Source of the DNA: an uncultured Victivallales bacterium
GTDB taxonomy: Bacteria > Verrucomicrobiota > Kiritimatiellia > UBA8416
Assembly (NCBI GenBank): GCA_964609395.1
Contig: CAZSRU010000001.1
Location: 7,324 to 71,323 of the forward strand
Reading direction: 5' to 3'
DNA: 64,000 nt
Shown: one piece after another, positions 7,032 through 62,443 of the stretch
How positions within the stretch are numbered: position 1 is the first letter of the stretch
Layout of the letters: each line of letters opens with the position of its first letter
The notes under the pieces: generated by a model
Told to the model about the DNA's origin: nothing
The model's input: the letters and a program-made list of their open reading frames with translations, nothing else
The model's database searches: none
Made by a program: the position numbers and the translations under genes

Positions 7032-7539
7032 TCTGGTTGCCTGTGGCATGTCGGGTGCTTATAGCTCCGGCATGAGACAGAACTTTTCTCGATATTGTCG
7101 CTCAGCGCTTCTTCTTTCTGTGATATTGCTTTCTATGCGAACGGCGCTTGCCGCCGATCAAACGAATGCAAATGGACAAGCCATGCCGTCGCGGGATGTG
7201 CCCGCTTGGGTCTCGCAGTCATCCGGCGGTTCCGCAGATACGCTGGCCCGGCCAGGCCGTTATGGTGCTTTCCGCTCGATGGCGGCTCTGCTGGTTGTGC
7301 TTGGCGGGTTATTCGGGGTGCATGTGCTTCTGCGCCGGCGTGGTGCACTTTGGACTAGCCCCGATCTTCTGTCGTTGCGCGTTGTGGCCCGCAAGCGTTT
7401 CGGTGCACGACAGGAACTGATTGTAGTCGAATGGGAGGGGCAGCGCCTGCTCCTAGGGGCGGGGCCCGGTTTTATTACCCGACTTAGCCGCATGGCGTCG
7501 GCAACAAAGCCGCAGGGTGCAGAGGAGCAGGATTCATGA
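7024..7539 (+). CDS. fliO: Flagellar biosynthesis protein FliO (exact start uncertain)
   Basis: Single TM segment and conserved FliO C-terminus LLSLRVVARKRFGARQELIVVEWEGQRLLLGAG; followed directly by fliP. Confidence 0.75.
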   Translation: MGDLVACGMSGAYSSGMRQNFSRYCRSALLLSVILLSMRTALAADQTNANGQAMPSRDVPAWVSQSSGGSADTLARPGRYGAFRSMAALLVVLGGLFGVHVLLRRRGALWTSPDLLSLRVVARKRFGARQELIVVEWEGQRLLLGAGPGFITRLSRMASATKPQGAEEQDS

Positions 7540-8659: not shown

Positions 8660-9436
8660 ATGACCGTGCTGCTGGGGGATTATCCGGTTGTCCTGTTGAT
8701 GGTGTTCTTCCGGGTGAGTGGTGTCCTGCTGGTTCTGCCGTTCTTCGGCATCCCGGCGGACAGCGGGTGGTTGCTGGCGGGAGCGTCGCTGCCGTTGACG
8801 CTTCTCTTCGCCAGCGTCATTTCACCATCCTGGAGTGCCGCCGCAGCCGCCCTGACCACAACGGGCGACTTGGTGCTGGCTATTTTTGGCGAAACCATGC
8901 TTGGCTCGGCGATCGGCTTGGTTTGCGGGATTTTTATCAACGCTTACGTGGTTGCCGGCACCCTTGCCAGCAGCGGATGTTCGCTGTCAATGGCCGAGGA
9001 ACTGGATCCGATAACCGGCGAGTCCTCGGATGTGCTGACGCAGGTTTGGCGCATGCTTTTCCTGTTGACGGTGCTGTCAACGGACGCGCACCTGATGGTT
9101 TTCCGCATCCTGGCGCGCACGTTCGAGCAACTGCCAGTGCCGTGGGTCGGTTGGGTGCATGGCGGACGCGACCTGGCATTGCTCGGGGGCACCGCATTCC
9201 GTGCCGGAATGTCGATCGCACTGCCGATTATTCTGGTTTCATTACTGGTCAGTATAGGTATGGCCTTGATCGCCCGAATGGCCTCCGGCTTTGATGTCAT
9301 GTTTCTCTCGCTGCCTTTCCGCTTGCTACTCGGGTTGAGTGTTTTTGCTCTTGCCTTGCTGTTGGGCGGCGGACTCCTGCGCACTATGGCATATCAGATG
9401 CTATCATCCTTGTCTCAGTTCCTAGGATGGTATTAA
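8660..9436 (+). CDS. fliR: Flagellar export gate protein FliR
   Basis: 258 aa polytopic membrane protein in fliPQR-flhB order. Confidence 0.85.
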   Translation: MTVLLGDYPVVLLMVFFRVSGVLLVLPFFGIPADSGWLLAGASLPLTLLFASVISPSWSAAAAALTTTGDLVLAIFGETMLGSAIGLVCGIFINAYVVAGTLASSGCSLSMAEELDPITGESSDVLTQVWRMLFLLTVLSTDAHLMVFRILARTFEQLPVPWVGWVHGGRDLALLGGTAFRAGMSIALPIILVSLLVSIGMALIARMASGFDVMFLSLPFRLLLGLSVFALALLLGGGLLRTMAYQMLSSLSQFLGWY

Positions 9437-14849: not shown

Positions 14850-15157
14850 AGGCGCTCTTATGTCAGATTGCATTGATTGTAGGCGGGATCGTGGCAGCCC
14901 TGTCGCTTGGGGTTAACTTGTTGCGGCATATGGAGCTGTTCACGGCGGTTTTCCGCGCCATCCTTGTTTTTATCGGTACAGTCACCATCATCTTTCTCTT
15001 CCTGCATCTTTTCTCTGTGATCCTGGTCCGTTTTGTTGCCGAGCAGGTGGTCCAGCAACGTAGTCATGCCGATGACGAACAGAATAAGACAAAGCAAGCT
15101 GGTACCTTTGTGCGTACACGCGCAGGAACGGCACCAAAAGCGATTGAACCGAAATGA
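14846..15157 (+). CDS. Small two-TM membrane protein between flhG and fliA (translationally coupled, ATGA overlaps)
   Basis: 103 aa, two hydrophobic helices then charged tail; overlaps flhG stop and fliA start. Confidence 0.5.
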   Translation: MKALLCQIALIVGGIVAALSLGVNLLRHMELFTAVFRAILVFIGTVTIIFLFLHLFSVILVRFVAEQVVQQRSHADDEQNKTKQAGTFVRTRAGTAPKAIEPK

Positions 15158-15927
15158 GTACGCAAACAACCGATATCAAGGATGAGGAATGTGTAGCCCT
15201 GTGGGCGACGCATGTCGCGGCCCCATCGGAGGATTCGGTTGCTCGCCTTGTCGAGTTTTACCTGCCGATGGTGCGCCAGACGGTTGCGCTGATGTCGGTT
15301 TATTGCCGCCCGGACCTTGACCGGGACGACTTGATCCAGCACGCCATGATGGGACTGTGGCAGTGCATCGAGAAGTTTGATCCTCAACGCCAGATCCGGT
15401 TTCGCAGCTTTGCGATGCCGCGGATTCGCGGGGCGGTGCTGGATGCGCTGCGACGGCATGACCCGTTGAGCCGGAATGACCGCGCACTACTGAAAACATT
15501 GCAGGATTCGGTGGCACTTTTCAGTCATCAGCACCAGGCGGTTCCGGATGAGGAAACGCTGGCAGCGCTGGCCGATATCGATGTCGACCGGTTGCATGAT
15601 TTAACTGCGCGTGCCCAGCCTGTGCTCTCGTTGGATGGAATCGGGCTCGAGGACATGGAAGGCAATGGGCAGAGTCTTGGAGACCGGTTGATTGATGAAA
15701 ATGCACCGGATCCACGCCTGGAAACAGTGCGCAACGAGCAGGGTGCCATTTTCAGGAAAGCCTTCAAGCAATTACCGTCACGACAGCAGAAGATCCTCTA
15801 TTTGTACTATTATGAAGACTTGACTTTAAAGGATATCGGCGCAATTCTGGATCTTACAGAGGCGCGTATATGCCAGTTGCATGCAACGGCACTGCTTTTT
15901 TTGAAAGCATTGATGAGAAGCGCGTAA
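15154..15927 (+). CDS. fliA: Flagellar sigma factor sigma28 FliA
   Basis: Sigma70 regions 2-4; region 4.2 HTH LTLKDIGAILDLTEARICQLHATAL. Confidence 0.9.
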   Translation: MSTQTTDIKDEECVALWATHVAAPSEDSVARLVEFYLPMVRQTVALMSVYCRPDLDRDDLIQHAMMGLWQCIEKFDPQRQIRFRSFAMPRIRGAVLDALRRHDPLSRNDRALLKTLQDSVALFSHQHQAVPDEETLAALADIDVDRLHDLTARAQPVLSLDGIGLEDMEGNGQSLGDRLIDENAPDPRLETVRNEQGAIFRKAFKQLPSRQQKILYLYYYEDLTLKDIGAILDLTEARICQLHATALLFLKALMRSA

Positions 15928-17325: not shown

Positions 17326-17341
17326 TGGCACTGGATCTGCT
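17326..17341 (+). promoter_or_regulatory. sigma54 promoter TGGCACtggatCTGCT upstream of flgL (-12 C is 14 nt before the ATG)
   Basis: GG at -24 and GC at -12 with exact spacing; 12/16 consensus. Confidence 0.6.
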
Positions 17342-20305: not shown

Positions 20306-21050
20306 TTTCTCCCGTACTACTGGGGCGAGGTAAGTCGCCCTCCTTGTTTCTGGCACGCTTCAGCAAGAATGTCACTTGCGGAGGGGGGCCATCGTGTCCA
20401 TCGTCAAGCATTCGGCAAAACCCAACAGCACGTATCCGATCGGTAGGAATAGGCCCTTTTACAATCAGATGTCTAGACAACCAGGCGGCACGCTGTGCTG
20501 CCAGTTTGCGATCGGCGGCAGGATTCCCCGTGTCGCCCCGGACTTCGATTACGATCCGATACTTTTTCATTGAATACAGCAGTGTCGCTGCCTGGTCAAG
20601 CGCGAATTGCGTATCACGGGTTACGCTCACGCGTCCGGGGTCAAACCGGATCTTTGAATAGATGCGTAAAGACTGTCTCGCATCCTCGAAATCGAAGCTC
20701 TTCACGTCGGCATCACTGAGCGTGAAACCATCGCGTTCACCATGTTTGTAGCCGACAAGCATGGCATCCTTGTTGTCTTCATTTGTATCCATGGTGCTTG
20801 CCGGCAGGGCTCTTATCGATCGCCAGAACTCCAATACGCCCGTGCCGCCGGCAATGCCGCCAAGGTTGCGGATCTTGCCTACGCCTTTCTTGTACTGGGA
20901 TGAGCGATTCTGCCCAAGGGATAGCATGATGATAAAAAAGGCCAGCAGAATCGTCATTAAAGAGGCAAATTGCCCCATATAGGCAGGAGCCTCAACGACC
21001 TTTGGGGGTTCTGGCGGATTTCTTTTCATTGCCATATCCCGGTCGGCCAT
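20292..21050 (-). CDS. MotB paralog with a full OmpA-like peptidoglycan-binding domain but lacking the conserved TM aspartate
   Basis: TM helix AYMGQFASLMTILLAFFII (Ser in place of the MotB proton-binding Asp); C-terminal OmpA motif (RKLAAQRAAWLSRHLI). Confidence 0.7.
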   Translation of the reverse strand: MADRDMAMKRNPPEPPKVVEAPAYMGQFASLMTILLAFFIIMLSLGQNRSSQYKKGVGKIRNLGGIAGGTGVLEFWRSIRALPASTMDTNEDNKDAMLVGYKHGERDGFTLSDADVKSFDFEDARQSLRIYSKIRFDPGRVSVTRDTQFALDQAATLLYSMKKYRIVIEVRGDTGNPAADRKLAAQRAAWLSRHLIVKGPIPTDRIRAVGFCRMLDDGHDGPPPQVTFLLKRARNKEGDLPRPSSTGENDHG

Positions 21051-21817
21051 TTATCGATGGTTCGCAGATCCGTCACCTTTCTCTCTCCCAGAATGGTGAT
21101 GAGTACTGCCTCCGTATTGGCCGTGCCATCCGTGCCGGCGATCTGCACACCCGTTCCGAAACGCTGTATATCGGCCTTCATGGCCGTTTGCATGGCGCCG
21201 GCCACGCTCTCGGCGCGTTCCACGCCCAGCCCCCATACTGAGCGAGATGTTTCGGAGTTGACGACCGTCTGCTGTGCAAGGACCGCCGTGATGAGAATGT
21301 CGTTGTCGTGACCGGCGAGCAATTTTGCAATGCCCTCCCATAGTCGATTTTCTTTCGGGTTCTCCCAATCTGCCGTTCCTTGAATGAACAGCGATTTGGT
21401 TTGCAGGATGATGGTGAGACCGTCTTCAATCATGCGGATGAGCACCCGGTCTGGCAAACCGTCGGGGTTGGTATTGCTGCTGGCACGGATTTCGACGATC
21501 ATCTGCGGCACCATTTCTGCCATTTCCTCGAGCGTCAGGAATCGGAGCGTCTGCTCTTCCCCCGGGGTTTGAGACAAGCCGTCGGCGTCCACTATCGGTG
21601 TGTCCTCCCTGATTAGAAACGGCTCTAATTGCTCGACCCCGCCGAGTGCGCCGCGCATGGCTCCGATCATGGGAGACAGTTTCTCGCTCTCCATGTCAGA
21701 AAAGGCAATCAGCATGACAAAGAAACAAACCAGAAGGGACATGCAGTCCCCGAAAGTCATCATCCATGCAGGACATCCCTTGGGCTTCGAAGAAGGTGGT
21801 GCTGCGCTACGTTTCAT
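21026..21817 (-). CDS. motB: Flagellar stator protein MotB (Asp-containing TM plug region; degenerate C-terminal PG-binding domain)
   Basis: PAWMMTFGDCMSLLVCFFVML matches MotB TM with the conserved Asp; follows motA. Confidence 0.8.
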   Translation of the reverse strand: MKRSAAPPSSKPKGCPAWMMTFGDCMSLLVCFFVMLIAFSDMESEKLSPMIGAMRGALGGVEQLEPFLIREDTPIVDADGLSQTPGEEQTLRFLTLEEMAEMVPQMIVEIRASSNTNPDGLPDRVLIRMIEDGLTIILQTKSLFIQGTADWENPKENRLWEGIAKLLAGHDNDILITAVLAQQTVVNSETSRSVWGLGVERAESVAGAMQTAMKADIQRFGTGVQIAGTDGTANTEAVLITILGERKVTDLRTIDKWPTGIWQ

Positions 21818-25802: not shown

Positions 25803-26431
25803 TGTTGTCTTGCCTGATTACTGCTGGTGCCAGCCTTCTCGTCTTTCTGTTTACGAATGAGATCACTCCAGGCTACAGCATGTTCGATGCCATTGTCGCC
25901 CAGCGCGACGGCGGCATCCATAATGGCCCCCGCCTGGCGGTCTGCCAGATTGTATAGAATGCGTGCCGCCTGATCATTTTCCATTTCAGTAAGCAGTCTG
26001 GCGGCATTCTGTGCATCCATTTTGGCGTAGAATTCAGCCAGTTTCCGGGTATTTATCTTCTCTGCTTCATCAAAGGCCTTGAAATGCTTCTCCAGCGCTT
26101 GCTCAGCCGATGTAAGCTCATCGCGCATCCGCTGTAATAGAATTTCCTCCTGGCGGACACGGGCCTCACGATTGTCGAGTTGCTCTTTTTGCCGATTCAT
26201 TGCCTCCTGACGGGCACGAATTTCCTCCAGCAGAACGTCGACCGCCTGGCTTTGTTCGGAAAATATGCTTGATCGCGAGTCGCGAGATTGAGCCTTTGCG
26301 GCCTCTTCCACGTCGGGGTCGGTTTTCGAGGAATCCGCGTCAGCGCTCAGGCGTCCTGTTGCGTAGATGGTTGCGAGCATGCTTAGGGCGGCGGCGCAGA
26401 GCATGCAAACAAAAACAAACAGACCTTTCAT
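25799..26431 (-). CDS. MgtE-N-like flagellar protein (YlxF/FlbB-position protein between fliJ and fliK)
   Basis: Signal/TM N-terminus, coiled coil, C-terminal motif ARLLTEMENDQAARILYNLADRQAGAIMDA typical of the MgtE_N/MotE family. Confidence 0.6.
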   Translation of the reverse strand: MKGLFVFVCMLCAAALSMLATIYATGRLSADADSSKTDPDVEEAAKAQSRDSRSSIFSEQSQAVDVLLEEIRARQEAMNRQKEQLDNREARVRQEEILLQRMRDELTSAEQALEKHFKAFDEAEKINTRKLAEFYAKMDAQNAARLLTEMENDQAARILYNLADRQAGAIMDAAVALGDNGIEHAVAWSDLIRKQKDEKAGTSSNQARQQ

Positions 26432-32301: not shown

Positions 32302-32631
32302 TTAGTTACCTTTTATTGCCTTTCGAATTCCTGCATATTTGCGCGATAAAAGGTCGGCGGATGTCACATAAAGCAACTGGTTTTCAGACATCGCGGCAAA
32401 TTCACGTTCCAAGCTGACCGGGGAGGCGGAGGAGTCCTTCTTTATGGTAGGGTTGAATGGCCCGGCCTCGGGGGTGCGCTTTTGGACGGCAGACTTAAGC
32501 TCGTCGATAAAACTGACGTCACTGCGCTGGTAGCCCGGTGTGTTTACGTTCGCAATATTGCTGGCCAGCGCCTGGCCTCGCAGTGCTGTCGCGTCTAGGA
32601 TGCGGTTCAGAAGTAATGTCACATCGTTCAT
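32302..32631 (-). CDS. flgB: Flagellar proximal rod protein FlgB (start moved to MNDVTLLL ATG 32631; the longer ORF would read through its own promoter and the upstream stop)
   Basis: LLNRILDATALRGQALASNIANVNTPGYQR matches the FlgB N-terminus. Confidence 0.85.
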   Translation of the reverse strand: MNDVTLLLNRILDATALRGQALASNIANVNTPGYQRSDVSFIDELKSAVQKRTPEAGPFNPTIKKDSSASPVSLEREFAAMSENQLLYVTSADLLSRKYAGIRKAIKGN

Positions 32632-32644
32632 GCTTGCCAGTATA

Positions 32645-32660
32645 AGCACCCTGCGTGCCA
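32645..32660 (-). promoter_or_regulatory. sigma54 promoter TGGCACgcaggGTGCT immediately upstream of flgB (-12 C is 15 nt before the ATG)
   Basis: Exact GG-N10-GC spacing with a TGGCAC -24 element; just downstream of the EBP gene stop. Confidence 0.6.
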
Positions 32661-32668
32661 TAGGCAAG

Positions 32669-34153
32669 TTACAGACCAGCCGGCAGGGAGCCTTCCTCGC
32701 GGTAGCGATTGAGCTTGTTTCGCAGCGTGCGGATGCTCACACCGAGCAGATCGGCCGCCTGGTTGCGCTGCCCATCGGTTTTTTCCATGGCGCGCAGGAT
32801 GGTTTGCCGTTCCAGCGCATCCAGGCATAGCGTCGTGTTGGCTGGGGAGGGGACCGCGCTGTCCGGGGCACATTCGCTCGCTGGCTTGCTTTCGGCGGGA
32901 GGCGTATGGGGGGGACTCTGCGTGGCCGGTTCCAGGATGGCCGAGTTCGCTCGTGTGCAGGTGCTGCCGTGCACTTCTGGCGGTAGCATCGCTGGCGTCA
33001 GTTCCGGCCCCTTTTCCATGACGCAGAGACGCTCAATCAGATGTTCCAGTTCGCGTACATTACCCGGCCAGGTGTAGCGGCACAGGATGTCGAGTGTGTC
33101 CTGGCGGAACCGCAAACCGTCGGTTTTGCCAGTCAGATTTCGAAGGTGCCGTTTGAGAAAGTTGTCTGCCAGCATCGGGATGTCCTCTGGCCGCTCGCGC
33201 AAGGGTGGCACATGGATGGGGACGACATTGAGCCGGTAGTATAGATCCTGCCGGAAGCCGCCCTCGCGCACATAGCTTTGCAGATCGCGGTTCGTGGTGG
33301 CAATGATCCGGCATTCCGCGCGCAGCGTTCGGCTTCCGCCAACACGTTCGAACTCACGCTCCTGAATCACGCGCAGCAGCTTCGCCTGCAGACCGAGCGG
33401 CATCTCGCTGATCTCGTCCAGCAGCAACGTCCCGTTGCCCGCGAGTTCGAAGCGTCCCGGGCGCCGGTTGATTGCCCCTGTAAAGGCCCCCTTCTCATGC
33501 CCGAAAAGTTCACTGTCGGCCAGCGATTCCGGTACGGCCGCGCAGTTCATACGCACAAAAGGACGTTTGCGGTATTCCCCGAGTCCGTGGATGGCCTGGG
33601 CTACTAATTCCTTACCCGTACCGCTTTCGCCTGAGATCAGTACCGTCGAGGAAGAAGCGGCGACGCGTTCAATCTGCTCGATCAGCTTTTGCATGGCGAC
33701 GGTTTGGCCGAGCAGGCGTTTTCCCTTTGGCATCGACCAGCCGAGCTCTTCCTTGAGATAGTCGTTTTGCGCATTGAGCCGCACCCACTCCTTTGCCCGG
33801 TTCAGGACGACTTCCACCTGCTCCGGTGAGAAGGGCTTCATGAGGAAGTCGATCGCTCCCAGTTTCATCGCTTCCACGGCTTGCTCCACGGTGCCGAAGG
33901 CGGTGACCATGACCGTCAGGGTCTCGATACCCGCCTCCTGCTTCCAGCGCAGCAGGTCCATGCCGCCTAGAACCGGCATTTTGATGTCGACGAAGGCCAT
34001 GTCGAAGTCGCGTTCTTCCATCAGTTTCTGTGCCTGTGCCCCATTACCAGCCTGCACCACCTCAATTCCAGCACGTGTGAGGGTTTCCACCACAAATTCG
34101 CGCATCAGTATGTCATCATCAACCACAAGCACGGTTTCAATACTGGAGATCAT
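32669..34153 (-). CDS. sigma54-dependent response regulator (FlrC/FleR-type: receiver + AAA+ + HTH)
   Basis: Receiver domain, GESGTGKE Walker A, GAFTGA-type sigma54 contact loop, C-terminal Fis-like HTH. Confidence 0.9.
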   Translation of the reverse strand: MISSIETVLVVDDDILMREFVVETLTRAGIEVVQAGNGAQAQKLMEERDFDMAFVDIKMPVLGGMDLLRWKQEAGIETLTVMVTAFGTVEQAVEAMKLGAIDFLMKPFSPEQVEVVLNRAKEWVRLNAQNDYLKEELGWSMPKGKRLLGQTVAMQKLIEQIERVAASSSTVLISGESGTGKELVAQAIHGLGEYRKRPFVRMNCAAVPESLADSELFGHEKGAFTGAINRRPGRFELAGNGTLLLDEISEMPLGLQAKLLRVIQEREFERVGGSRTLRAECRIIATTNRDLQSYVREGGFRQDLYYRLNVVPIHVPPLRERPEDIPMLADNFLKRHLRNLTGKTDGLRFRQDTLDILCRYTWPGNVRELEHLIERLCVMEKGPELTPAMLPPEVHGSTCTRANSAILEPATQSPPHTPPAESKPASECAPDSAVPSPANTTLCLDALERQTILRAMEKTDGQRNQAADLLGVSIRTLRNKLNRYREEGSLPAGL

Positions 34154-35427
34154 GCTTCCACTCCTGTTTTGGGTAATTCAACACTAAATAGACTGCCTCT
34201 GCCGGGTTCGCTGGAGATGTTGATCTCGCCACCGTGGATATCGATGATTTTGCGGGTGAGCGATAAGCCTAGGCCGGTGCCGCCTTCCTTGGATGTAAAG
34301 AAAGGATCAAACACTTTGGACACAAGCAACGCATCCATGCCGCACCCGTTGTCGCGCACATGCAAGGCGACCGTGTTGTGGCTATCGGTGGCCGATATAT
34401 GGACGGTGCCGGAGGCGTCGCAGGCCTCAATGGCGTTGATTCCCAGATTGAGCAGCGCTTGGGTTATCTGGCGGTAGTCACCGCGGAACTGTATGTCTGG
34501 CTCGGGCGGTGTCATGACGAGACAAACGCGGGTGCGTGTGGCCCGGTCTTCCAGTGTTTCCCGGCAGGATTCGAATACGGCCGCAACGGATACCTGTGAT
34601 ATCTGCAGACGCATCGGGCGTGCATAGGTCAGTAGGTTGGTGATGACATAATTCAGGTTCTGAGCGCCCTCGACGATCCGTTCCGCCAGGCGCAATGGGC
34701 CGGGCATGGTTTCCAGATCCCGTCGCAGCAGCCGTGCAAACCCTTCGATCGTACCCAGGGGATTGCGAATCTCGTGAGCCACGCTGGCTGCCATCTCGCC
34801 AAGGGCGGCAAGCCTCTCCTGGCTTTGGAGGCGCTTTTCCATGCGGCGGAATTCGGTGACATCACGCAGATTGCATATCGCACCCAGAATCTTGCCGTCG
34901 GGTGCGGTTACCGGGGCAAGACTCAGCAGTATTCGTCGCGTTTCGCCCTGCCCATGGCTCGTGGTCCAGGGATGGTCAAGCAATGGCGTGTCGCCGTGGA
35001 GTACCCGCCCCAGGTGTGATTCTGATTCCGGCGCCTGCACGATATGCGAGAACAAGGCATTCTCGATTTCCGGACGCGTTACCTGCAGCAGGCGGCATGC
35101 GGCTGAATTACACCGTTCAATACGCCCGTCCTGGCCGACGACCAACAACCCGTCGGTCAGGCTTTCAACCACGCTTTCCAACCGACTGGAGACCTGCCGG
35201 AGCGCTTGGTTCGTGGCCGTCAACTCGCTGTTACGCTCCTGCAGGGTCTTGTTGGAGCTGGCAAGGTCAGCTTCCAGTGAGCGGTAAGCCTTCTCCAGTT
35301 GGCGGCTTTGGCGCTCGAAGATTTCAAATGCCGACTGCACGGCCGCCAAGGTTCCGTCGTTTTGATTTGAAACCGGAACCGTCGCGGAAGGGGCTAGGGT
35401 ATGGATGGGAAGGTGAGGGGCCTGCAT
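34150..35427 (-). CDS. PAS-containing sensor histidine kinase (FlrB/FleS-type)
   Basis: PAS domain, HisKA (SVAHEIRNPL) and HATPase_c (GTGLGLS) motifs; overlaps the start of the cognate EBP gene. Confidence 0.85.
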   Translation of the reverse strand: MQAPHLPIHTLAPSATVPVSNQNDGTLAAVQSAFEIFERQSRQLEKAYRSLEADLASSNKTLQERNSELTATNQALRQVSSRLESVVESLTDGLLVVGQDGRIERCNSAACRLLQVTRPEIENALFSHIVQAPESESHLGRVLHGDTPLLDHPWTTSHGQGETRRILLSLAPVTAPDGKILGAICNLRDVTEFRRMEKRLQSQERLAALGEMAASVAHEIRNPLGTIEGFARLLRRDLETMPGPLRLAERIVEGAQNLNYVITNLLTYARPMRLQISQVSVAAVFESCRETLEDRATRTRVCLVMTPPEPDIQFRGDYRQITQALLNLGINAIEACDASGTVHISATDSHNTVALHVRDNGCGMDALLVSKVFDPFFTSKEGGTGLGLSLTRKIIDIHGGEINISSEPGRGSLFSVELPKTGVEA

Positions 35428-39362: not shown

Positions 39363-39378
39363 AGCAGGGTCTGTGCCG
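39363..39378 (-). promoter_or_regulatory. sigma54 promoter cGGCACagaccCTGCT upstream of the LysM/RR-STAS/TPR operon
   Basis: GG-N10-GC exact spacing; shares the GCTAGCAGGGT core with the fliD promoter; 54-nt leader to a strong RBS. Confidence 0.6.
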
Positions 39379-39423: not shown

Positions 39424-40800
39424 TCAGATAGTTATGCTGTGATCCTTGATTTTTCTTAGCAAGGAACTGCGATGGATTTTTAGAATTTCGGCCGCTTGGC
39501 CGCGATGTCCGCTCACGTCGCGCAAAACACGCATAATCAACTGTCGTTCGCATTCGGCAAGGCTCATGGATGGAATCTCAGAGGTCTGACCGGTGGGGGG
39601 CTGTGTTTTGGCCGGTGTTGCTTGTTTGCCGTTTGGAATGGCAAGATCCTTGGCATCAATCTCGTTGCCTGTACACAGAATGACGCCGCGTTCGATCGAA
39701 TGGCGCAGCTCACGGACGTTCCCTGGCCAGTCATAAGCGCAAAGTGCTTCCATGGCCGCCGTCGTGAATCCACTAAGGTGGCTGCCTGCTGTTTTTTTGT
39801 GATGATTGAGGCACTGTTCCGCAAGCTTTGGAATACTTTCCGGGTGCTCACGCAGCGGCGGCAGGGTCAGGGGGAAGACCGACAAACGGTAATAGAGATC
39901 CTCGCGGAACGTACCATCCTTTACCATTTCCTGTAGATTGCGGCAGGTGGCGGCGACGATGCGCACATCCACCTGAATGACTCGGCTCCCGCCTAAACGG
40001 CGGAATTGCTTGTCCTCGATCACCTTTAGCAGTTTCGCCTGCAGAGCGGGGGCCATATCGCCGATCTCATCGAGGAAAACCGTGCCGCCATCGGCGATTT
40101 CAAGCAAACCGGGTTTGCTGACCTTGGCATCAGTGAAGGCACCTTTCTCATAACCGAAAACCTCGCTTTCCATCAACGGCCCCGGAATCGCCGAGCAATT
40201 GATGTCGACAAACGGCTTCGCGGCACGTGCGCTGAGGCGATGCACGGCAGACGCCATCATTCCTTTTCCAGTTCCGCTTTCCCCTAAAAGCAGCACCGTC
40301 GTGTCGGGGAAGGCGGCAATGCGCTGTACTTTTGTAAAGAGATCACGCAGGGCTCCGCCGCCAATCATCTCGTCGAGCTGCCAGACGTCGCCGCCGGAAC
40401 CGGTCGATAGCCGCGCGAGTCCCTCCACGCGCTCTTCCATGTTGACCGCTTTCTCAACATTACGGATGATTTTCTCAAGTTGCTCGTTTTCGTACGGTTT
40501 AGGTAAGTAGTCGTAGGCCCCGCTGCGAATGGCTTGAATGGCTGATCTGACATCGCTGTGGCCGGTTACAAAAACAACGTAAGCTCCCTTTGATAAGCCG
40601 TTGATCTCTTCAAGGAAATGGAAACTGTCGCCGTCGGGTAATCGCCGGTCAAGAAAGATCAGCTTGAATTGATTATCCTTCAGTCGGCTGCGTGCTTCGC
40701 TTAACGAATCGCAGGCTTTGACGTCGTGGCCTTTGCGCTTTAAAAGGTCAAACATGACCTTGCGCTGGATTTCGTCATCTTCAACGATTAGAATATCCAT
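39424..40800 (-). CDS. sigma54-dependent response regulator (NtrC/FlgR-family, second copy)
   Basis: Receiver + AAA+ (GESGTGKG) + GAFTDA + C-terminal HTH. Confidence 0.9.
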   Translation of the reverse strand: MDILIVEDDEIQRKVMFDLLKRKGHDVKACDSLSEARSRLKDNQFKLIFLDRRLPDGDSFHFLEEINGLSKGAYVVFVTGHSDVRSAIQAIRSGAYDYLPKPYENEQLEKIIRNVEKAVNMEERVEGLARLSTGSGGDVWQLDEMIGGGALRDLFTKVQRIAAFPDTTVLLLGESGTGKGMMASAVHRLSARAAKPFVDINCSAIPGPLMESEVFGYEKGAFTDAKVSKPGLLEIADGGTVFLDEIGDMAPALQAKLLKVIEDKQFRRLGGSRVIQVDVRIVAATCRNLQEMVKDGTFREDLYYRLSVFPLTLPPLREHPESIPKLAEQCLNHHKKTAGSHLSGFTTAAMEALCAYDWPGNVRELRHSIERGVILCTGNEIDAKDLAIPNGKQATPAKTQPPTGQTSEIPSMSLAECERQLIMRVLRDVSGHRGQAAEILKIHRSSLLRKIKDHSITI

Positions 40801-41552
40801 TATGGTGTTGCCCTTTCTGCGGCATCAGACGGCGGCATCGGCATGGTCGGGCAAGATAACGTCACGGTCCATTCGTTTGCTCGGCATGGCGCCAGTTCCG
40901 CTGTGCAATCACCGCCGGTGAGGCGGGCCAGGCGTTGCGCCAACGCAAGCCCCAGGCCGAGGTGGCGTGGTCGTGTTGTGTAAAAAGGTAGAAAAGCCTG
41001 ATCTCGCAGGGCGGCGTCGATGCCAGGCCCCGAATCGGACACGGTCCATGCGATGCCGTCTTCGTTCGCCTGTAGGTGCAGGCCGACAATACCGCGCGGC
41101 ACAGCCTCGCAGGCGTTGGTCAGGAGTTCCTGCAAGGCGATTCGCATGATCGACGGCGCGGCTGTTGCCGCGTCACCCTGTTGGCGGATCTCTACATTCG
41201 GGAAACGGCGGGCTACGGCCGCCATGGCTTCTGCGGTTATGTCGGATACGAACTCTGGCCGAATCGCGGGGTCGCGTTCCCAGTACAGGCTGAATCGATT
41301 GGCCATATCGGTTAGCGAATCACACTCCCGGAGCATTAAGGGAAAGTACTCGCGAAGATCGGGAGCAAGGGCGCTTCCTGCATCGGATTCGATGAGGTTC
41401 ACGGCCCCGCTGATGCCTGAGGCGATGTTCCGCAGACGGTGCCGCAGCACATGCGACATGCGCTCTAAGTCGTCGGTGCTTAAATGGGGTGGAGTAACTG
41501 AAATCATTGTTTTTCTTATACAACTCGTGTCGGGCGGTGTCAAGAAAGTCAT
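40800..41552 (-). CDS. Soluble histidine kinase (FlgS-like, no TM segments)
   Basis: 250 aa; HisKA H-box (SHVLRHRLRNIASG) and HATPase_c (GLGLALAQRLARLTGG). Confidence 0.8.
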   Translation of the reverse strand: MTFLTPPDTSCIRKTMISVTPPHLSTDDLERMSHVLRHRLRNIASGISGAVNLIESDAGSALAPDLREYFPLMLRECDSLTDMANRFSLYWERDPAIRPEFVSDITAEAMAAVARRFPNVEIRQQGDAATAAPSIMRIALQELLTNACEAVPRGIVGLHLQANEDGIAWTVSDSGPGIDAALRDQAFLPFYTTRPRHLGLGLALAQRLARLTGGDCTAELAPCRANEWTVTLSCPTMPMPPSDAAERATP

Positions 41553-41561
41553 TTTTCGTGA

Positions 41562-43475
41562 TCACAGCGTGGCGTGCCACAGGCACAAGTTCACGATCGG
41601 CCATAGTTTCATGGGGTGGACCGTCATGCTGCCGTTCAGCCAGGCATCAACCGCGATCGGGTTGAATAGCGTGTGCCGAAGGGGCGATGTCGCAATTGCC
41701 TCCCTGATCATGGGATTCATCCACGTGTCCATCCAGTCGAAAACAGGCACGGGGAAGCTCATCTTCGGGCGCTGCAGGATCGACGTCGGGACCGAATCGG
41801 TATAGGCGTGGCGTAGCAGCCGTTTGGATTCGATCAGATCCTGTTGTACAATCTCCATCACGTTCAGCCCCTGCGCGGCAATCGCACCAGCCGGTTGCCG
41901 CCAGTCCAGGCGGTAGGTGTCCGGCAGCGAGAATGCAAAATCAACCAGCCGGTGATCGGTAAACGGGACGCGCGCCTCGACGGATGCGGCCATGGAACTG
42001 GAGTCCACCCGCAGGAGCAAGCCTTCGAGGTTGACGCGCAGGTGGGCAAGCATGATGCGGTCCAGGGTGGATGCATCCGGGTGGCGGCTGTAGAGTTGCT
42101 GATAGAAGGCTCGGATGGCATGGTCGTTGTGCAGGCTGGCCGTGATATCCGGATGCATCCAGAGTTGCTTCTCCGGCGTGGACATCCAGGTGTTCAGCAG
42201 CAGGTGCTGGGTGGCCAGATCCGGCAGGTGCGCTTGTCCATAGCCGCGCAGTAGCGCCTGATCGGTCGCATTCATACCTGACTCAGGCTTTGGTGAGCGC
42301 GAAGCCCGGTCGAAGTCATGGGCCGCGAAATAGGCAATCGTGTAACCGCCGAAGATCTCGTCGGCACCTTCGCCGCTCAAGGCCACCGTGTATTCCTCGC
42401 GCAGTGCTTTTGAAAGCATGTAGATCGGCACTTCGTTAGGGGTGGTGAGAGGGAGACCGTTCTGGCGTATCAAAAAATCCCACAATGCGGGGTAATCGGC
42501 CGAGTCAAGCGTGATTTTGCGGCACTTCATACGGTAGGCGTCAGCCGCCTCTTTCACATACGGGAATTCGTTGAACCCGGGTTGCGCGTAGCCCACGTTA
42601 TAGGCGTGAAAGTGGTTGTCCGTGAGGGTGCTGGCCTGTTCTGCAATAATGGTTGAATCCAGGCCGCCGCTGAGAAAACCGCCCAGCGGAACGTCGCTGA
42701 TCAGGCGCAGCCGTACCGCCTCCTTGATCAAGTCGCGCGTTTCTTCGGCCGCCGCTTCCAGTGAGAGCCGTGATTTGTCCTGCGGTGCAGGGCAGGATGG
42801 TGCCCAATAGCAGCCGCCATGCTGCCCGCCGCTCGCGTCGATGCGCATCCAGTGGCCGGGTTCCAGCAAGTGCACGCCGCTGAGCAGGGTATCCTGCCCG
42901 AGATTAACCCGTATGGTGGATAGGTAGTGGGAGGCGGCCGAAGCGTCAAGTGCGGGTTTTTCCGGCAGCAGGGCCAGCAATGCGCGCATCGACGAGGCAA
43001 AACAGAACGTCTTGCGTTGCTGTGCCCAGAATAGCGGCTTTACGCCCAGTCGGTCGCGGGCCAGGAAGAGTGCGCGGTGGCGGGGGTCATAAATGGCGAA
43101 GGCAAACATGCCGAGGAGTCGGTAAATGCAGGCCGTGTCCCACTCCAGAAAGGCGTGCAGCAGCACTTCGGTGTCCGAATGGGTTTGAAATGCGTGTCCC
43201 GCGGCTTGCAGCTCGGTGCGCAATTCCCGGTAATTGTAAATCTCTCCATTAAAGACGATTACCGATCCGGTTTGCGGATCCACCAGCGGCTGGTGCCCGC
43301 CGTCGATGTCGATAATGGCCAGGCGTCGGTGCGCAAGCCCTATGCGGTCTGTGTGGAATTGCCCCTGATCGTCCGGGCCGCGCAAGGCCATGCAATCGGC
43401 CGCATCCTGAAGCCGCGGCAGCCACTGCTCGCAAGGAAGTGCGGTGGGGGAGGCGTAGCCGGCAATACCGCACAT
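41562..43475 (-). CDS. Asparagine-synthetase-family glutamine amidotransferase, PseA-like candidate flagellin-glycan modification enzyme (start moved to MCGIAG ATG 43475, RBS AGGAG)
   Basis: N-terminal Ntn Cys (MCGIAGY), PP-loop SGGLDSS; adjacent to fliD and flagellin. Confidence 0.75.
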   Translation of the reverse strand: MCGIAGYASPTALPCEQWLPRLQDAADCMALRGPDDQGQFHTDRIGLAHRRLAIIDIDGGHQPLVDPQTGSVIVFNGEIYNYRELRTELQAAGHAFQTHSDTEVLLHAFLEWDTACIYRLLGMFAFAIYDPRHRALFLARDRLGVKPLFWAQQRKTFCFASSMRALLALLPEKPALDASAASHYLSTIRVNLGQDTLLSGVHLLEPGHWMRIDASGGQHGGCYWAPSCPAPQDKSRLSLEAAAEETRDLIKEAVRLRLISDVPLGGFLSGGLDSTIIAEQASTLTDNHFHAYNVGYAQPGFNEFPYVKEAADAYRMKCRKITLDSADYPALWDFLIRQNGLPLTTPNEVPIYMLSKALREEYTVALSGEGADEIFGGYTIAYFAAHDFDRASRSPKPESGMNATDQALLRGYGQAHLPDLATQHLLLNTWMSTPEKQLWMHPDITASLHNDHAIRAFYQQLYSRHPDASTLDRIMLAHLRVNLEGLLLRVDSSSMAASVEARVPFTDHRLVDFAFSLPDTYRLDWRQPAGAIAAQGLNVMEIVQQDLIESKRLLRHAYTDSVPTSILQRPKMSFPVPVFDWMDTWMNPMIREAIATSPLRHTLFNPIAVDAWLNGSMTVHPMKLWPIVNLCLWHATL

Positions 43476-43491
43476 GGGGACGCTCCTGCCG

Positions 43492-44967
43492 TTACTTGCT
43501 GCCGTTGAGCTGGCCCAACAGGAATTCGAACCCCGACTGCATTTTGCCGATGGCCTCATCCATGGCACCGAACTGACGCCAGAGCATCGCTTCTTTCATC
43601 TCCAGTTCCCGCGTCATGCGGTCAATCCGTTCGTCCTGGCGAGTGATCTCATCATTGATATTCTCAATGCCGACATCAATCCATCCGTCGAGCTCCGAGG
43701 CGTAATTCTTGGTTTCCGTATAAATGGAAAGGGCGATGCCGCCTTCGCGTACGCCGGCCTGTGTTTCGGAGGGAACGCCCCGGAAAAGATTTTCAACCTC
43801 AGTGGGATATTGCTCCAACATGGCATCGAGGCGTTCTTCGTCGATAATGGCCAAGCGGTTCTGTTCTCCCTGGGTCCAGATACCGATGTGTTGGAGAGAA
43901 TCCATGACTCCCTGTGCCCCGTTGAACGAATACCCTGCATTATCAGCCGTGTGGGTACTGTTCATCAGTTGCCCGGCCAACCCACGCAATTTATAGGTGA
44001 TTTCGCGCATCATACTGTTGTCTTGCAGCATGCCAGGTAAAGGGTTCGATGGATCGCTGCGATCCCAGGTCCCGTAGAACTCATTGACTTCCGCAGCCGT
44101 GTTGTAGGCTTCTATGAAGGTGTTGATCGACTCCTTGATCGCGGCATTATCCCGCCCCACCTTGATTTCGCTGTATCCGGTGTCGTACAAGTTCAGCGTG
44201 ACGCCGTCGACAATATCGGATAGACCGGTGTTGGACGAGCGGGTAACCGTGGCACCATTCACCTTGAATTCGGCATTCTGGGCGGATAGCAATTCGTTGG
44301 TGACCGTGCCAAAGGCGTCCAGGACGCCGAGGCTGAGCAGAGGGGTTCCGGCCGTGTCGGAGATGGAAATGGTATCCGAGCCAGTGTTGACACGCTGAAG
44401 GACGAGCCGATTATCAAGGATCGATGCGGTCACTTGGTCGGCTTCCGGCATAAGCTCGGTGGCCGCATTGATTTTGTCGCGTAGCGAGGACAGGGTTTCC
44501 GTATTACTGATGGTAAAGGTCTGGCCGCCGATGGCGAACTGGTCTCCGAGGCTGACGCCGGCAATGGTGGTCAGGAGCGTGGAGGAGGTCACGGGGGCCC
44601 CCCCCGAGTCGGTCAGTCCGGTAGCGGAGGCAATCGTTTGTGCGCGAGCCAGTTGCGTGACTTCTATCGTATAGGTATTGGCGGCGGCATTGGCGGCGGC
44701 GGTGGCGGTCGCCACTGAGGAATCGGTGCTAGTGGACGCCATTTTACGCCAGACATCCATCCAGCGCAGGCTGTCGGAGGCGCGCGTCAGGGCGCTAAGG
44801 TTGTCCTTTACATCAATCCATGCCGTGACCTTATCATTGCGCAAGGACTGTTCGTCCTGCACTTTTTTAACGCGGCTGCCTTCCATCTCCATGATTTTGG
44901 CGATGGTGGCACCTACATCGAACCCGGAAGCGAGTCCGCTGATACGAAAATCGGGTGTAACACTCAT
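43492..44967 (-). CDS. fliD: Flagellar filament cap protein FliD
   Basis: 491 aa; N-terminus ISGLASGFDVGATIAKIMEME and coiled-coil C-terminus typical of FliD. Confidence 0.9.
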   Translation of the reverse strand: MSVTPDFRISGLASGFDVGATIAKIMEMEGSRVKKVQDEQSLRNDKVTAWIDVKDNLSALTRASDSLRWMDVWRKMASTSTDSSVATATAAANAAANTYTIEVTQLARAQTIASATGLTDSGGAPVTSSTLLTTIAGVSLGDQFAIGGQTFTISNTETLSSLRDKINAATELMPEADQVTASILDNRLVLQRVNTGSDTISISDTAGTPLLSLGVLDAFGTVTNELLSAQNAEFKVNGATVTRSSNTGLSDIVDGVTLNLYDTGYSEIKVGRDNAAIKESINTFIEAYNTAAEVNEFYGTWDRSDPSNPLPGMLQDNSMMREITYKLRGLAGQLMNSTHTADNAGYSFNGAQGVMDSLQHIGIWTQGEQNRLAIIDEERLDAMLEQYPTEVENLFRGVPSETQAGVREGGIALSIYTETKNYASELDGWIDVGIENINDEITRQDERIDRMTRELEMKEAMLWRQFGAMDEAIGKMQSGFEFLLGQLNGSK

Positions 44968-44982
44968 GGTGCTGATGTGGCT

Positions 44983-44998
44983 AGCAGGGTTAATGCCA
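44983..44998 (-). promoter_or_regulatory. sigma54 promoter TGGCATtaaccCTGCT upstream of fliD (-12 C is 17 nt before the ATG)
   Basis: Exact -24/-12 spacing; core GCTAGCAGGGT shared with the LysM-operon promoter. Confidence 0.6.
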
Positions 44999-45002: not shown

Positions 45003-45035
45003 GGATTATGGAAAAAAAAACGGGACGCCGTTCAG
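45003..45035 (-). terminator. Rho-independent terminator of flagellin 1 (8-bp GC stem CGGGACGC/GCGTCCCG followed by T9 on the minus strand)
   Basis: Perfect inverted repeat followed by a 9-nt U-tract in the transcribed orientation. Confidence 0.8.
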
Positions 45036-45058
45036 AGCGTCCCGCTTATGCCACTTAT

Positions 45059-46453: not shown

Positions 46454-46469
46454 TGGCATCCGTGGTGCT
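46454..46469 (+). promoter_or_regulatory. sigma54 promoter TGGCATccgtgGTGCT upstream of fliW-csrA
   Basis: Exact spacing; ~70 nt before the fliW ATG. Confidence 0.5.
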
Positions 46470-46537: not shown

Positions 46538-47062
46538 ATGAACACGAAGTCGATATACGAAGACGCGATTGTTGTTAAACCTTATTCGAGGCTGGTCTCC
46601 TTGACGATCCGGCCGGAGCATGTATTCCATCTCCCGCAAGGCCTGCCTGCCTTTGAGGGATTCAAGAATTACATTTTCACGATCAAGCCGGATACCAGTC
46701 CATTTATTTTCATGCAATCAATTGAGCCCGCCGGCCTTTCGTTTGTCTGTATTGACCCCTTCCTGGTGTATCCGGATTATGCGCCCCGTATCGGGACCGC
46801 CGACCAGGATCTTCTTCGTCTTGCCCGCCCGGAAGCGCTGATGTTGTTAAGCATCGTGACCGTGCGCGCCGATGAACGCGAAACAACGGCGAATCTACAG
46901 GGACCCCTGGCGATCAATATTGAAAACTCGATCGGCAAGCAGATTCTCTGCGATGGGCAGACTTATCCGGTGCGGTATAGGATCTGGGATGCCATCAGCC
47001 AGGACGAAACGACGCTCGATCAGGCTTCCGTGCGGTACGGCATTGAGTATGCTAGCGCATAG
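46538..47062 (+). CDS. fliW: Flagellar assembly factor FliW (CsrA antagonist); start moved to MNTKS ATG 46538 (RBS GAGGGA)
   Basis: FliW-family sequence (FEGFKNYIFTI...LLSIVTVRAD...TANLQGPLAINI) directly upstream of csrA. Confidence 0.85.
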   Translation: MNTKSIYEDAIVVKPYSRLVSLTIRPEHVFHLPQGLPAFEGFKNYIFTIKPDTSPFIFMQSIEPAGLSFVCIDPFLVYPDYAPRIGTADQDLLRLARPEALMLLSIVTVRADERETTANLQGPLAINIENSIGKQILCDGQTYPVRYRIWDAISQDETTLDQASVRYGIEYASA

Positions 47063-47366: not shown

Positions 47367-47517
47367 TCCAAGGTCCGTTCCAGGGCTGGATTATGGAAAG
47401 GAGGTGACGGGAGTCAGTCGGGGTTGGAATGCACTGCCGCCGGTGCAGTGCACAGGGCGCCATGGGCGGTCTGGAGTGATGCCGGTGTTGTAAATGAGGA
47501 TTCAATGCTAACAAGAA

Positions 47518-47553: not shown

Positions 47554-47561
47554 GAGAGAAA

Positions 47562-60837: not shown

Positions 60838-60853
60838 TGGCACGCATATTGCA
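60838..60853 (+). promoter_or_regulatory. Consensus sigma54 promoter TGGCACGcataTTGCA upstream of rpoN, preceded by a ~60 nt AT-rich tract
   Basis: Perfect match to TGGCACG-N4-TTGCA; 53 nt upstream of the rpoN ATG. Confidence 0.7.
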
Positions 60854-60904
60854 TTGGTAATCATCAACGAAGTGTTGTTAACTACTCTTTGATTGGTGGG
60901 AACC

Positions 60905-62443
60905 ATGAATATAAATTTCAACTTGTCCGGTAACGTCTCCCAGCAGCAGCAGCTTAATCTGGCCCCACAACTGCTGCAATGGCTGCGCCTTCTCCAGGTG
61001 CCGGCGCAGCATTTGGAACAGATGGTTCGGAGTGAGATTGAAACCAATCCCGCGCTGGAAGTCGATGAGAGTGCCCCCGCCGCACCGGATGATGCCGACC
61101 TTTACGCCGAGCCATCGGCGGATGTGCGTGACGCGGATTCCGAGCGTGAAGGCAGGGAATTGGAGGAGCGTTTTGAAATCCTTGCTGAAATCGATTCGCA
61201 ATGGGCGGATGAAAACCGCAATATGGCGGGCGAGGATCTCGGTCGTACGCAGGACCGGATCGACTATCAGTTGCAGTCACTGGTGTCTGCCTCTTCCCTT
61301 CAGGAACATCTTCTTCGCCAGTTGGCGGTGATGAATAAGCCGGATGTCCTGAAGGTCAATGCGGGATTGATTGTTGGAATGCTGGATGAGCGCGGCTATC
61401 TGGACGTCTCGCTGGATGAATTGGCCGAAGAACTCGCACTTGCCGTTGAGGTGGTGGAGGATGCCCTCGCGGTGGTTCAGGAATGTGATCCGATAGGCGT
61501 TGGTGCCCGTGATTTGCGTGAATGCCTTCTCTTGCAGTTATCGCCGACGGACGACGCCCATGCGGTTGCCCGGCGAATCGTATCCCGCTATATCGAGGCG
61601 CTGGCGCGTGGGCAGCTTGAGGGCATCGCCCGTCAGTTGGGGGTGTCTTTGGCCGAGGTTGAGTCGGCAGTAAAGCTGATCCGCACACTCAACCCGACTC
61701 CCGGCAAGACGTTTGAAGAGCAGAAGATGGTTACGCAGACGGTGACGCCCGATATTTCCATCCGGCGCAACGCGGAAGGGGGCTTTGATATTGAAATGGT
61801 TGAACAGTCGCTGCCGCGACTGCGCATCAGCCCCTATTGCCGACGCATGATCGAGCAAGGCGGCTTGTCAAAAACGGATTTGGCCTATATTCGTTCCCGT
61901 ATCCGTGCCGCCTCTTTCCTGATAGAGGGACTTGAAAAACGCGGGTCGACATTGCGGCGCATTGCAGAGGAGATTATCCGCGGCCAGCACCGCTTCCTGC
62001 GGGGGGAGGAAAGCGAGATCCGGCCCCTGACCATGGCCAAGGTGGCGAGCTTTATCGGGGTGCATGACACCACCGTCAGCCGTGCCCTGGCTGACAAGTA
62101 TGTCTCCACGCCGGTTGGCGTGTTGCCCATGAAAGCGTTTTTCTGCACCGGATATCGGTGCGATGATGGCAGTGCCATGACACCGGAAATGGTGCGCCGG
62201 CGCATCGAGCAGATGATTCTCGATGAAGAACCCGGAAAACCGATCAAGGACGAATGTATTGCCGCTCAGTTGCGTGAGAGTGGTGTTGTGGTAGCCCGTC
62301 GTACGGTTGCCAAATATAGAGGCGAATTGGGATTGCCATCATCGAAGGAACGTGCGCAGGCACGCCGCCAGGGCCTACGGGTTATCCATGGCTCCGGCAA
62401 TCCTGCTGCAAGCATCGAACCGGTGGCAGTGGCTTTTGGATAA
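60905..62443 (+). CDS. rpoN: RNA polymerase sigma54 factor RpoN (start at ATG 60905)
   Basis: Region I (LNLAPQLLQWLRLLQVP), core-binding and DNA-binding regions, RpoN box ARRTVAKYR. Confidence 0.95.
   Translation: MNINFNLSGNVSQQQQLNLAPQLLQWLRLLQVPAQHLEQMVRSEIETNPALEVDESAPAAPDDADLYAEPSADVRDADSEREGRELEERFEILAEIDSQWADENRNMAGEDLGRTQDRIDYQLQSLVSASSLQEHLLRQLAVMNKPDVLKVNAGLIVGMLDERGYLDVSLDELAEELALAVEVVEDALAVVQECDPIGVGARDLRECLLLQLSPTDDAHAVARRIVSRYIEALARGQLEGIARQLGVSLAEVESAVKLIRTLNPTPGKTFEEQKMVTQTVTPDISIRRNAEGGFDIEMVEQSLPRLRISPYCRRMIEQGGLSKTDLAYIRSRIRAASFLIEGLEKRGSTLRRIAEEIIRGQHRFLRGEESEIRPLTMAKVASFIGVHDTTVSRALADKYVSTPVGVLPMKAFFCTGYRCDDGSAMTPEMVRRRIEQMILDEEPGKPIKDECIAAQLRESGVVVARRTVAKYRGELGLPSSKERAQARRQGLRVIHGSGNPAASIEPVAVAFG

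Follow-up and report, generated by a model that had tools for sequence, protein, structure and literature searches.

We analyzed a 64,000-nucleotide (nt) stretch of DNA from an uncultured Victivallales bacterium (contig CAZSRU010000001.1, positions 7,324 to 71,323, forward strand; here referred to as the window), which Pfam scans and gene calls on matching contigs identified as a main flagellar and chemotaxis gene cluster. Thirteen copies of a -24/-12 element stand ahead of its genes, and we regard these with high confidence as sigma-54 promoters of a flagellar regulon. The window as a whole very probably encodes a sigma-54 flagellar hierarchy built on these 13 promoters, including a class of five (at fliO, flgL, flgB, fliD, and orfX) in which the -12 box lies almost against the start codon and no Shine-Dalgarno (SD) sequence intervenes. 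The oddity claimed for the -12 box is minor; what deserves further attention is, in our view, the conserved fusion of promoter and ATG at five operons.

The two strands of the window were searched for the element, with dinucleotide-preserving shuffles as the null for pattern counts. The strict pattern TGGCAY-N6-TGCT matched 10 times against 0.37 ± 0.58 expected, and none of 100 shuffles reached 10. A looser pattern, TGGCAY-N7-GC, matched 16 times against 8.6 expected, and 5 of these 16 matches lie inside genes and have no TGCT. The full set of 13 comprises the 10 strict matches, a site with CGGCAC ahead of an operon that begins with a LysM protein gene (the LysM operon), a site with TTGCA ahead of rpoN, and a weak site ahead of csrA; its consensus is YR-TGGCAY-N4-SS-TGCT-W. 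The GG-N10-GC spacing is exact at every site, the -24 block reads TGGCAY at 11 sites and CGGCAY at 2, and the -12 block contains TGCT at 12 and reads TTGCA at 1. All 13 are co-oriented with a start codon 13 to 80 nt downstream, an arrangement with a chance of 0.052 per random position and strand and a probability of ∼2e-17 for the whole set. A position-specific scoring matrix (PSSM) made from sites of related genomes alone recovered 11 window sites at ≥14 bits, compared with 0.36 in shuffles, yet the regular expression that collected those sites fixes the core bases, so the matrix is partly circular for those columns, which counts against it as evidence.

The related genomes are represented by syntenic contigs (given L numbers) in which FlgC, FliD, or RpoN is 55 to 87% identical to that of the window. 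Orthologous sites were present in L087, L089, L091, L093 to L097, and L006 (55 to 85% protein identity), where they precede flgB, fliK (L089 and L091), the LysM operon, fliD, fliW, csrA (counterparts of the weak site in L093 and L096), orfX, flgF, flgI, and rpoN (L006 and L097). When the regions upstream of fliD and orfX were aligned, the only invariant intergenic columns were TGGCA, TGCT, and ATG. By their positions, the sites at fliO, flgL, flgB, the LysM operon, fliD, fliW, orfX, and flgF would head operons; those at flhB, fliK, csrA, and flgI would act as internal boosters of long operons, the flhB site as a putative operon-internal promoter; and one further site precedes rpoN (Table 1).

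An earlier note on this DNA had proposed that a family of sigma-54 promoters precedes its flagellar transcription units, and the proposal is strongly supported in silico by the statistics above, by rpoN and two activator genes in the same window, by the RpoN box of RpoN and the GAFTGA motif of one activator, and by orthologous conservation. All nine sites that it listed are present and intergenic, although its title spoke of ten units; the sites at fliO, flhB, fliK, and csrA are additions. The flgI site begins at 56425 rather than 56424, the -24 block was given as TGGCA(C/T) throughout, which holds except for the CGGCAC of the LysM operon, and the number of listed sites with CTGCT or GTGCT is eight rather than nine. 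The chance expectation of about 2 sites falls between our values for the strict and loose patterns. An 11-mer said to be identical in the fliD and LysM-operon promoters is indeed there (ACCCTGCTAGC on the promoter strand). We rejected it as a separate element: it consists of the -12 box and its flanks, and relatives keep just CCTGCT at both promoters.

Table 1. Candidate sigma-54 sites and related features of the window (nt coordinates)
Feature	Position	Strand	Sequence	Distance to start codon	SD	Remarks
Sigma-54 site, fliO	7044..7059	+	TGGCATGTCGGGTGCT	-12 C to ATG (7072), 13 nt	none	GTGCT
Sigma-54 site, flhB	9387..9402	+	TGGCATATCAGATGCT	ATG (9481) 79 nt on		ATGCT; within fliR 3' end
Sigma-54 site, flgL	17326..17341	+	TGGCACTGGATCTGCT	13 nt to ATG (17354)	none	gap divergent with cheY
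Sigma-54 site, fliK	25877..25892	-	TGGCATCGAACATGCT	ATG (25802) 75 nt on		ATGCT; in 3' end of MgtE_N-like gene
Sigma-54 site, flgB	32645..32660	-	TGGCACGCAGGGTGCT	14 nt to ATG (32631)	none	
Sigma-54 site, LysM operon	39363..39378	-	CGGCACAGACCCTGCT			CGGCAC; before LysM-RR-o743-o107-HK425-EBP494
Sigma-54 site, fliD	44983..44998	-	TGGCATTAACCCTGCT	16 nt to ATG (44967)	none	
Sigma-54 site, fliW-csrA	46454..46469	+	TGGCATCCGTGGTGCT	leader 69 nt	GAGG	
Weak sigma-54-like site, csrA	47038..47053	+	CGGCATTGAGTATGCT	ATG (47133) 80 nt on		fliW 3' end; 11.1 bits
Sigma-54 site, orfX-orfY-orfZ	51655..51670	+	TGGCACGGAGGCTGCT	14 nt to ATG (51684)	none	
Sigma-54 site, flgF-flgG-flgA-flgH	53158..53173	+	TGGCATCCAGGCTGCT	leader 38 nt	GGAGG	
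Sigma-54 site, flgI	56425..56440	+	TGGCATGAGGGCTGCT	leader 26 nt	GAGG	
Sigma-54 site, rpoN	60838..60853	+	TGGCACGCATATTGCA	52 nt ahead of ATG		TTGCA
Intrinsic terminator of upstream flagellin gene	45018..45047	-				12-bp stem and T-run; abuts fliD -24 element
rpoN (sigma-54)	60905..62443	+				AID, CBD, and DBD domains; RpoN box RRTVAKYR at residue 465
HK425 (PAS histidine kinase, 34150-35427) and EBP494 (REC-AAA+-HTH_8 activator, 32669-34153)	32669..35427	-				directly upstream of flgB
HK250 (kinase, 40800-41552) and EBP458 (REC-AAA+-HTH_8 activator, 39424-40800)	39424..41552	-				loop GAFTDA
fliA (sigma-28)	15154..15927	+				last gene of fliOPQR-flhBAFG cluster; Sigma70_r2/r4; same-strain contig

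That the sites lie near starts had been seen before; what had gone unnoticed is that in five of them the C of the -12 box is 13 to 16 nt from the start codon (13 at fliO and flgL, 14 at flgB and orfX, and 16 at fliD). All five genes begin with ATG, the one start codon for which gaps were searched, and none has GGAG, GAGG, AGGA, or AAGG at positions -18 to -4, where most other genes have one. Under a uniform distribution of gaps, the probability that at least 5 of 13 sites fall within 13 to 17 nt is 4e-4. In the window and eight relatives together, 18 sites have gaps of 13 to 17 nt (flgB four times, fliD five, orfX six, fliO and flgL once each, and one extra site in L095), none has a gap of 18 to 21 nt, and in every other real site the gap is at least 22 nt. 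A 9-nt gap at flgF of L097 proved to be an artifact of an upstream, out-of-context ATG. The class of gap goes with the gene: flgB, fliD, and orfX are always short, whereas a leader bearing a GGAGG-type SD is present in every case at flgF, flgI, and fliW. SD-led starts are also the norm elsewhere in the lineage, for example at rplU and rpmA.

Across distant relatives, where flgB, fliD, and orfX were compared, the length of the short gaps is conserved and their sequence is not. Among the distant FlgC loci listed (≤57% identity), short gaps between the sigma-54 site and flgB recur in L008, L009, L012, L022, and L041; other loci have leaders containing an SD. At fliD, the terminator that abuts the -24 box (12-bp stem) is kept in all five of five relatives. 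At flgB, the 37 nt between the stop codon of the activator gene and the start codon are filled by the sigma-54 site, and in the sister strains L002 to L004 a palindromic insertion of ∼155 bp (L002:2460-2613, L003:2460-2613, and L004:1981-2134; ∼32665 in the window) lies between that stop codon and the promoter, 9 bp upstream of the -24 box, with the rest through the ATG identical. The insertion carries a 29-bp perfect inverted repeat (DNA fold of -51 kcal/mol, z = -10.3) and looks like a miniature inverted-repeat transposable element or a repetitive extragenic palindromic element. Because it leaves everything from the -24 box through the ATG unchanged, the flgB promoter appears to be a self-contained unit whose upstream distance can change.

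We predicted transcription starts by taking +1 as the 12th nt after the -12 C. Start sites mapped in Campylobacter jejuni lie 8 to 13 nt after the motif GGaa-N6-tTGCTt (PMC3847290), and messages are commonly called leaderless when ≤5 nt separate the transcription start from the start codon (PMC12754779). Sites with gaps of 13 to 17 nt would then have leaders of 2 to 6 nt, and the five operons of the window, with 2 to 5 nt, would produce functionally leaderless mRNAs. On balance we favor, by a modest margin over its being wrong, the view that the short-gap class yields mRNAs that are leaderless or have leaders of ≤6 nt. If so, only a transcript begun at the promoter would bear a 5'-proximal AUG that can be translated without an SD, and read-through or spurious transcripts of these genes, with no ribosome-binding site, would not be translated. 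The first cistron at fliO, flgL, flgB, fliD, and orfX might thus be translated only after activator-dependent initiation by sigma-54, a proposal that we put forward tentatively, as somewhat less probable than the short leaders themselves. Two points weigh against this interpretation of the gaps: in L007 the flgB gap is 28 nt, and gaps of 16 to 17 nt predict leaders of 5 to 6 nt, which reach or exceed the length usually allowed for leaderless translation. Our searches of the available literature library returned no report of a sigma-54-driven leaderless mRNA or of promoter choice coupled to translatability for sigma-54; they tied a single leaderless case to a sigma-54 system, and its promoter, in Myxococcus, is read by sigma-A.

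The sites could instead be genuine sigma-54 promoters of genes that are translated conventionally, either from a true start codon that lies downstream of the proposed one and has an ordinary ribosome-binding site or from an mRNA made by an upstream promoter or read-through. The marginal length of the longest predicted leaders would suit this explanation, as would the disagreement of gene callers on the N termini: on matching contigs, flgB is called at 119 or 171 amino acids (aa), FliD at 519 aa, and FliO at 118 aa (window positions 32302-32667, 43492-44967, and 7024-7539, respectively). However, the proposed starts agree with where the Pfam N-terminal domains begin, 2 to 14 residues from the ATG (FliD_N from residue 14, position 14 of Flagellin_N at FlgL residue 16, and the FlgB rod motif offset by 4 residues). 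The ATG and the N-terminal peptides that follow it are kept across relatives (e.g., MSVTPDFRISGL / MSTMRISGLGSG and MT.LEKNTNQLY), whereas the extended open reading frames are not conserved and are disrupted or changed by the insertion in L002 to L004, which leads gene callers to lengthen flgB to 171 aa. Since ribosome-binding sites are lacking, we take the extended calls of flgB, fliD, and fliO to be annotation artifacts. A longer upstream transcript is itself unlikely for three of the five genes, given the conserved terminator abutting the fliD promoter, the divergent cheY-flgL gap, in which there is no sigma-70-like site, and the insertion tolerated at flgB; and without an SD at these ATGs, such a transcript would still have no ribosome-binding site. 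Translational coupling to the upstream gene was rejected for flgB (37-nt gap and tolerated insertion), fliD (terminator), and flgL (divergent gap). Conventional translation of the short-gap genes is, in our assessment, unlikely.

That the motif is read by a sequence-specific regulator or another sigma factor, its likeness to a -24/-12 promoter being coincidental, is a far less probable reading. Its support comes from the preference for C or G at -15 and -16, which deviates from the textbook TTGCW. The earlier note had called the -12 element unusual, which overstates the case, as the TGCT core fits the canonical TTGCW; what holds is a lineage-wide but mild preference for C or G at these two positions. 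In the window, T at -14 is invariant and -15 is C, G, or A at 12 of 13 sites; at 26 sites of relatives, -15 is C in 16, G in 7, T in 2, and A in 1, and -16 is C in 16 and G in 8. A base other than T at -15 is not obligatory, because some flgB and fliK sites of relatives have TTGCT; the rpoN site has TTGCA in the window and ATGCT in L097. Nor does such a base exclude membership in the sigma-54 class, since some validated Escherichia coli sigma-54 promoters depart in the same way, with identical -12 variants among them (zraS CTGCT, hycA ATGCT, zraP ATGCA, and norV/b2710 and ddpX CTGCA; PMC2831329). Also against another regulator, both blocks match with exact spacing at every site, the motif is directional and positioned at a short distance ahead of start codons, rpoN and two activators with sigma-54-interaction domains are encoded in the same cluster, and rod, hook, ring, and cap genes are sigma-54 dependent in many phyla (PMC12316311, PMC3760246). 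Chance matches in GC-rich DNA, which the random expectation for the loose pattern might suggest, have a negligible probability, having been refuted by the strict-pattern count, the PSSM from relatives, and the orientation test, and the orthologous sites are kept over the whole range of protein identity.

The dinucleotide at -16/-15 is conserved and specific to the gene: fliD and the LysM operon have CC (10 of 10), fliW has GG (4 of 5), and orfX, flgF, and flgI have GC for the most part. This pattern may mark promoter subclasses or may reflect shared ancestry alone. The two promoters with CC are also those linked to activator genes, in that fliD precedes the genes of the HK250/EBP458 pair and the LysM operon holds those of HK425/EBP494.

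We infer from the gene content of the window that the promoters would be read by RNA polymerase carrying the window's own RpoN and opened by one or both of its NtrC-type two-component activators. RpoN matches the Pfam families Sigma54_AID, CBD, and DBD with E values of 1e-12 to 1e-52. Both activators match Sigma54_activat (EBP494, E = 1.7e-69; EBP458, E = 2.8e-64); EBP494 contains GESGTGKE and GAFTGA, and with its kinase resembles the FlrBC, FleSR, and FlgSR pairs. The LysM operon encodes a LysM protein, a REC-STAS protein, and two proteins from unknown genes before running into the HK425/EBP494 pair; its leader is ∼50 nt, with an AAGGA SD ahead of the second ATG (39313). Because this operon is preceded by a sigma-54 site and encodes the second activator pair, an order of events can be proposed. 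HK250/EBP458 would act on the LysM-operon promoter, the resulting HK425/EBP494 would activate the rod, hook, ring, and cap operons, and the flagellins would come last, through FliA and a FliW-CsrA switch. Against this hierarchy stand the sigma-54-contacting loop of EBP458, which reads GAFTDA (kept in the orthologs of L091, L093, and L094) and leaves its contact with sigma-54 uncertain, and the outcome of k-mer enrichment over -260 to -5 and +16 to +140, which gave no significant shared activator-binding motif after multiple testing. Activator sites may lie in neighboring genes or may differ for the two activators. The flgB-linked activator of L087 has GAFTSA in the loop.

Two sigma-70-like hexamer pairs (CTGACA-18-CATATT and TTGGCA-16-AATCAT, at 60821-60864) overlap the sigma-54 site of rpoN. 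They are weak matches (9 of 12), and 2 were found against 0.6 expected. The overlap would let sigma-54 occlude a housekeeping promoter of rpoN, which suggests possible autoregulation. Autoregulation of rpoN via a sigma-54 site at its own promoter has been described in rhizobia; the likeness here lies in a -24/-12 site ∼50 nt ahead of rpoN that is overlapped by sigma-70-like hexamers.

The lineage belongs, by its RpoN homologs, to the Planctomycetes-Verrucomicrobia-Chlamydiae (PVC) superphylum, probably with kinship to Verrucomicrobia. The nearest named homolog of RpoN is a protein from a "Verrucomicrobia bacterium" metagenome-assembled genome (MAG; 68% identity), and the next are from Spartobacteria, Kiritimatiellae, and Lentisphaerae at 43 to 47% identity. 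A scan of species-representative genomes with FlgI had one unclassified MAG as its sole match (93% identity). The DNA of the window also forms part of JGI contig Ga0207193_1000150, and its CheY led to a contig of the same strain (99.99%).

The cluster opens with chemotaxis genes and a DUF2225 gene, followed by fliOPQR-flhBA-flhFG-fliA; cheX, cheY, and flgL are also present. A long operon runs flgBC-fliEFGHIJ-(MgtE_N-like)-fliK-flgD-flgE-like-motAB-fliLMN, with two neighboring MotB-like genes downstream of motA (20292-21817, minus strand). The kinase/activator pair that includes EBP458 lies downstream of fliD and an asparagine synthase gene (41562-43568, minus strand). Beyond it are fliW-csrA, flanked by two flagellin genes, then an MptE-like (Maf-type) gene (49057-50871, plus strand), fliS, and orfXYZ, and finally flgFG-flgAHI-flgJ(N)-flgN-flgK, with rpoN at the end of the window. 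Pfam assignments include FliO, FlhB, FlgL (Flagellin_N/C), and FliW, and CsrA was also identified; FlgM was not identified in the window. The asparagine synthase gene beside fliD and the MptE-like gene beside the flagellin genes suggest flagellin modification.

In both flagellin leaders (46078-46130, minus strand, and 47500-47561, plus strand), as in those of L093 to L096, a conserved hairpin (GGGGCAAGGACGCCCC or GCAAGGATGC) has AAGGA in its loop, and the SD is GGAGG. This pair of features is the classic two-site CsrA target and fits the location of fliW-csrA, flanked by the flagellin genes, as in a partner switch of the Bacillus subtilis type. Upstream of flagellin gene 1 (46190-46230, minus strand) is a degenerate GG-N10-GC element, CGGCATAGAGCTCGCAAT, followed by CGGCATAAG repeats; the spacing and CGCAA box of this element are kept in L093, L095, and L096. 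Upstream of flagellin gene 2 is a sigma-28-like TAAA-N15-(C/T)TAACAAG.

The operon between fliS and flgF (51684-53082), which consists of orfX (106 aa), orfY (∼270 aa), and orfZ (104 aa), is conserved, and the N terminus of orfX, MT.LEKNTNQLYRQKYF, is conserved in six lineages. No Pfam or NCBIfam family was found for these three or for the other small open reading frames scanned. Their products may be unrecognized flagellar proteins or chaperones.

These results extend the sigma-54 flagellar hierarchy to an uncultured, Verrucomicrobia-like lineage of the PVC superphylum and supply a set of clean, conserved promoters from which operons in MAGs of this kind can be annotated. They also correct the start codons of flgB, fliD, and fliO, which gene callers mis-extend. 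If the short leaders are real, sigma-54 promoters would be capable of making leaderless mRNAs, and this cluster would offer a simple test case for the gating of translation by transcription-start choice during flagellar assembly.

It is well supported that the window represents a known kind of system, the sigma-54 flagellar regulon of the Vibrio, Pseudomonas, Campylobacter, and Helicobacter type, in a little-known PVC lineage. The combination of rpoN, two-component sigma-54 activators, FlhF/FlhG, and FliA is that of known flagellar hierarchies (PMC3760246, PMC12316311). As in Vibrio cholerae (FlrA and FlrBC) and Pseudomonas aeruginosa (FleQ and FleSR), -24/-12 promoters of the RpoN type precede rod, ring, hook, export, and cap operons; a PAS kinase paired with a REC-AAA+-HTH activator, FlhF/FlhG, and FliA are encoded in the cluster; and there would be two activator tiers, the second pair being encoded under a sigma-54 promoter. 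In contrast to those Proteobacteria, this PVC lineage has FliW-CsrA and five promoters that abut the start codon, and its gene order is of the Bacillus/spirochete fla-che type. EBP458 also differs from FleQ and FlrA at the N-terminal domain, where it has a receiver domain, and in its own kinase and GAFTDA loop.

The FlgSR systems of C. jejuni and Helicobacter pylori likewise join a two-component system with sigma-54 to activate rod and hook genes (PMC3760246). C. jejuni shares the TGCT of the -12 block (PMC3847290), and there, as here, flagellins and late genes are divided between sigma factors. The epsilonproteobacterial -24 block, however, is GGAA, compared with TGGCAY here. FlgR of C. jejuni and H. 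pylori is not known to have a DNA-binding domain, whereas both activators here carry HTH_8. The start sites of C. jejuni were mapped by experiment, whereas those reported here are predicted from sequence.

The element itself resembles canonical enterobacterial sigma-54 promoters such as glnAp2, pspA, zraS, and hycA, which share TGGCAC/T-N5-xTGCW, the GG-N10-GC spacing, and the variants CTGCT, ATGCT, and CTGCA. Among the E. coli sigma-54 promoters compared, most end ∼30 to 300 nt from the start codon, the nearest being the candidates crl (-17) and yejH (-22), whereas five promoters here end ∼10 to 13 nt from the ATG, and C or G is preferred at -15/-16. The leaderless mRNAs of Deinococcus-Thermus and Actinobacteria (PMC12340547) resemble the short-gap class in having a promoter element whose short distance from the ATG is fixed, no SD, and a spacing that is conserved where the sequence is not. 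Those cases involve -10 elements of the sigma-70 family and are genome-wide, whereas here it is a sigma-54 -12 box that stands at particular flagellar operons of an organism that otherwise uses SD sequences.

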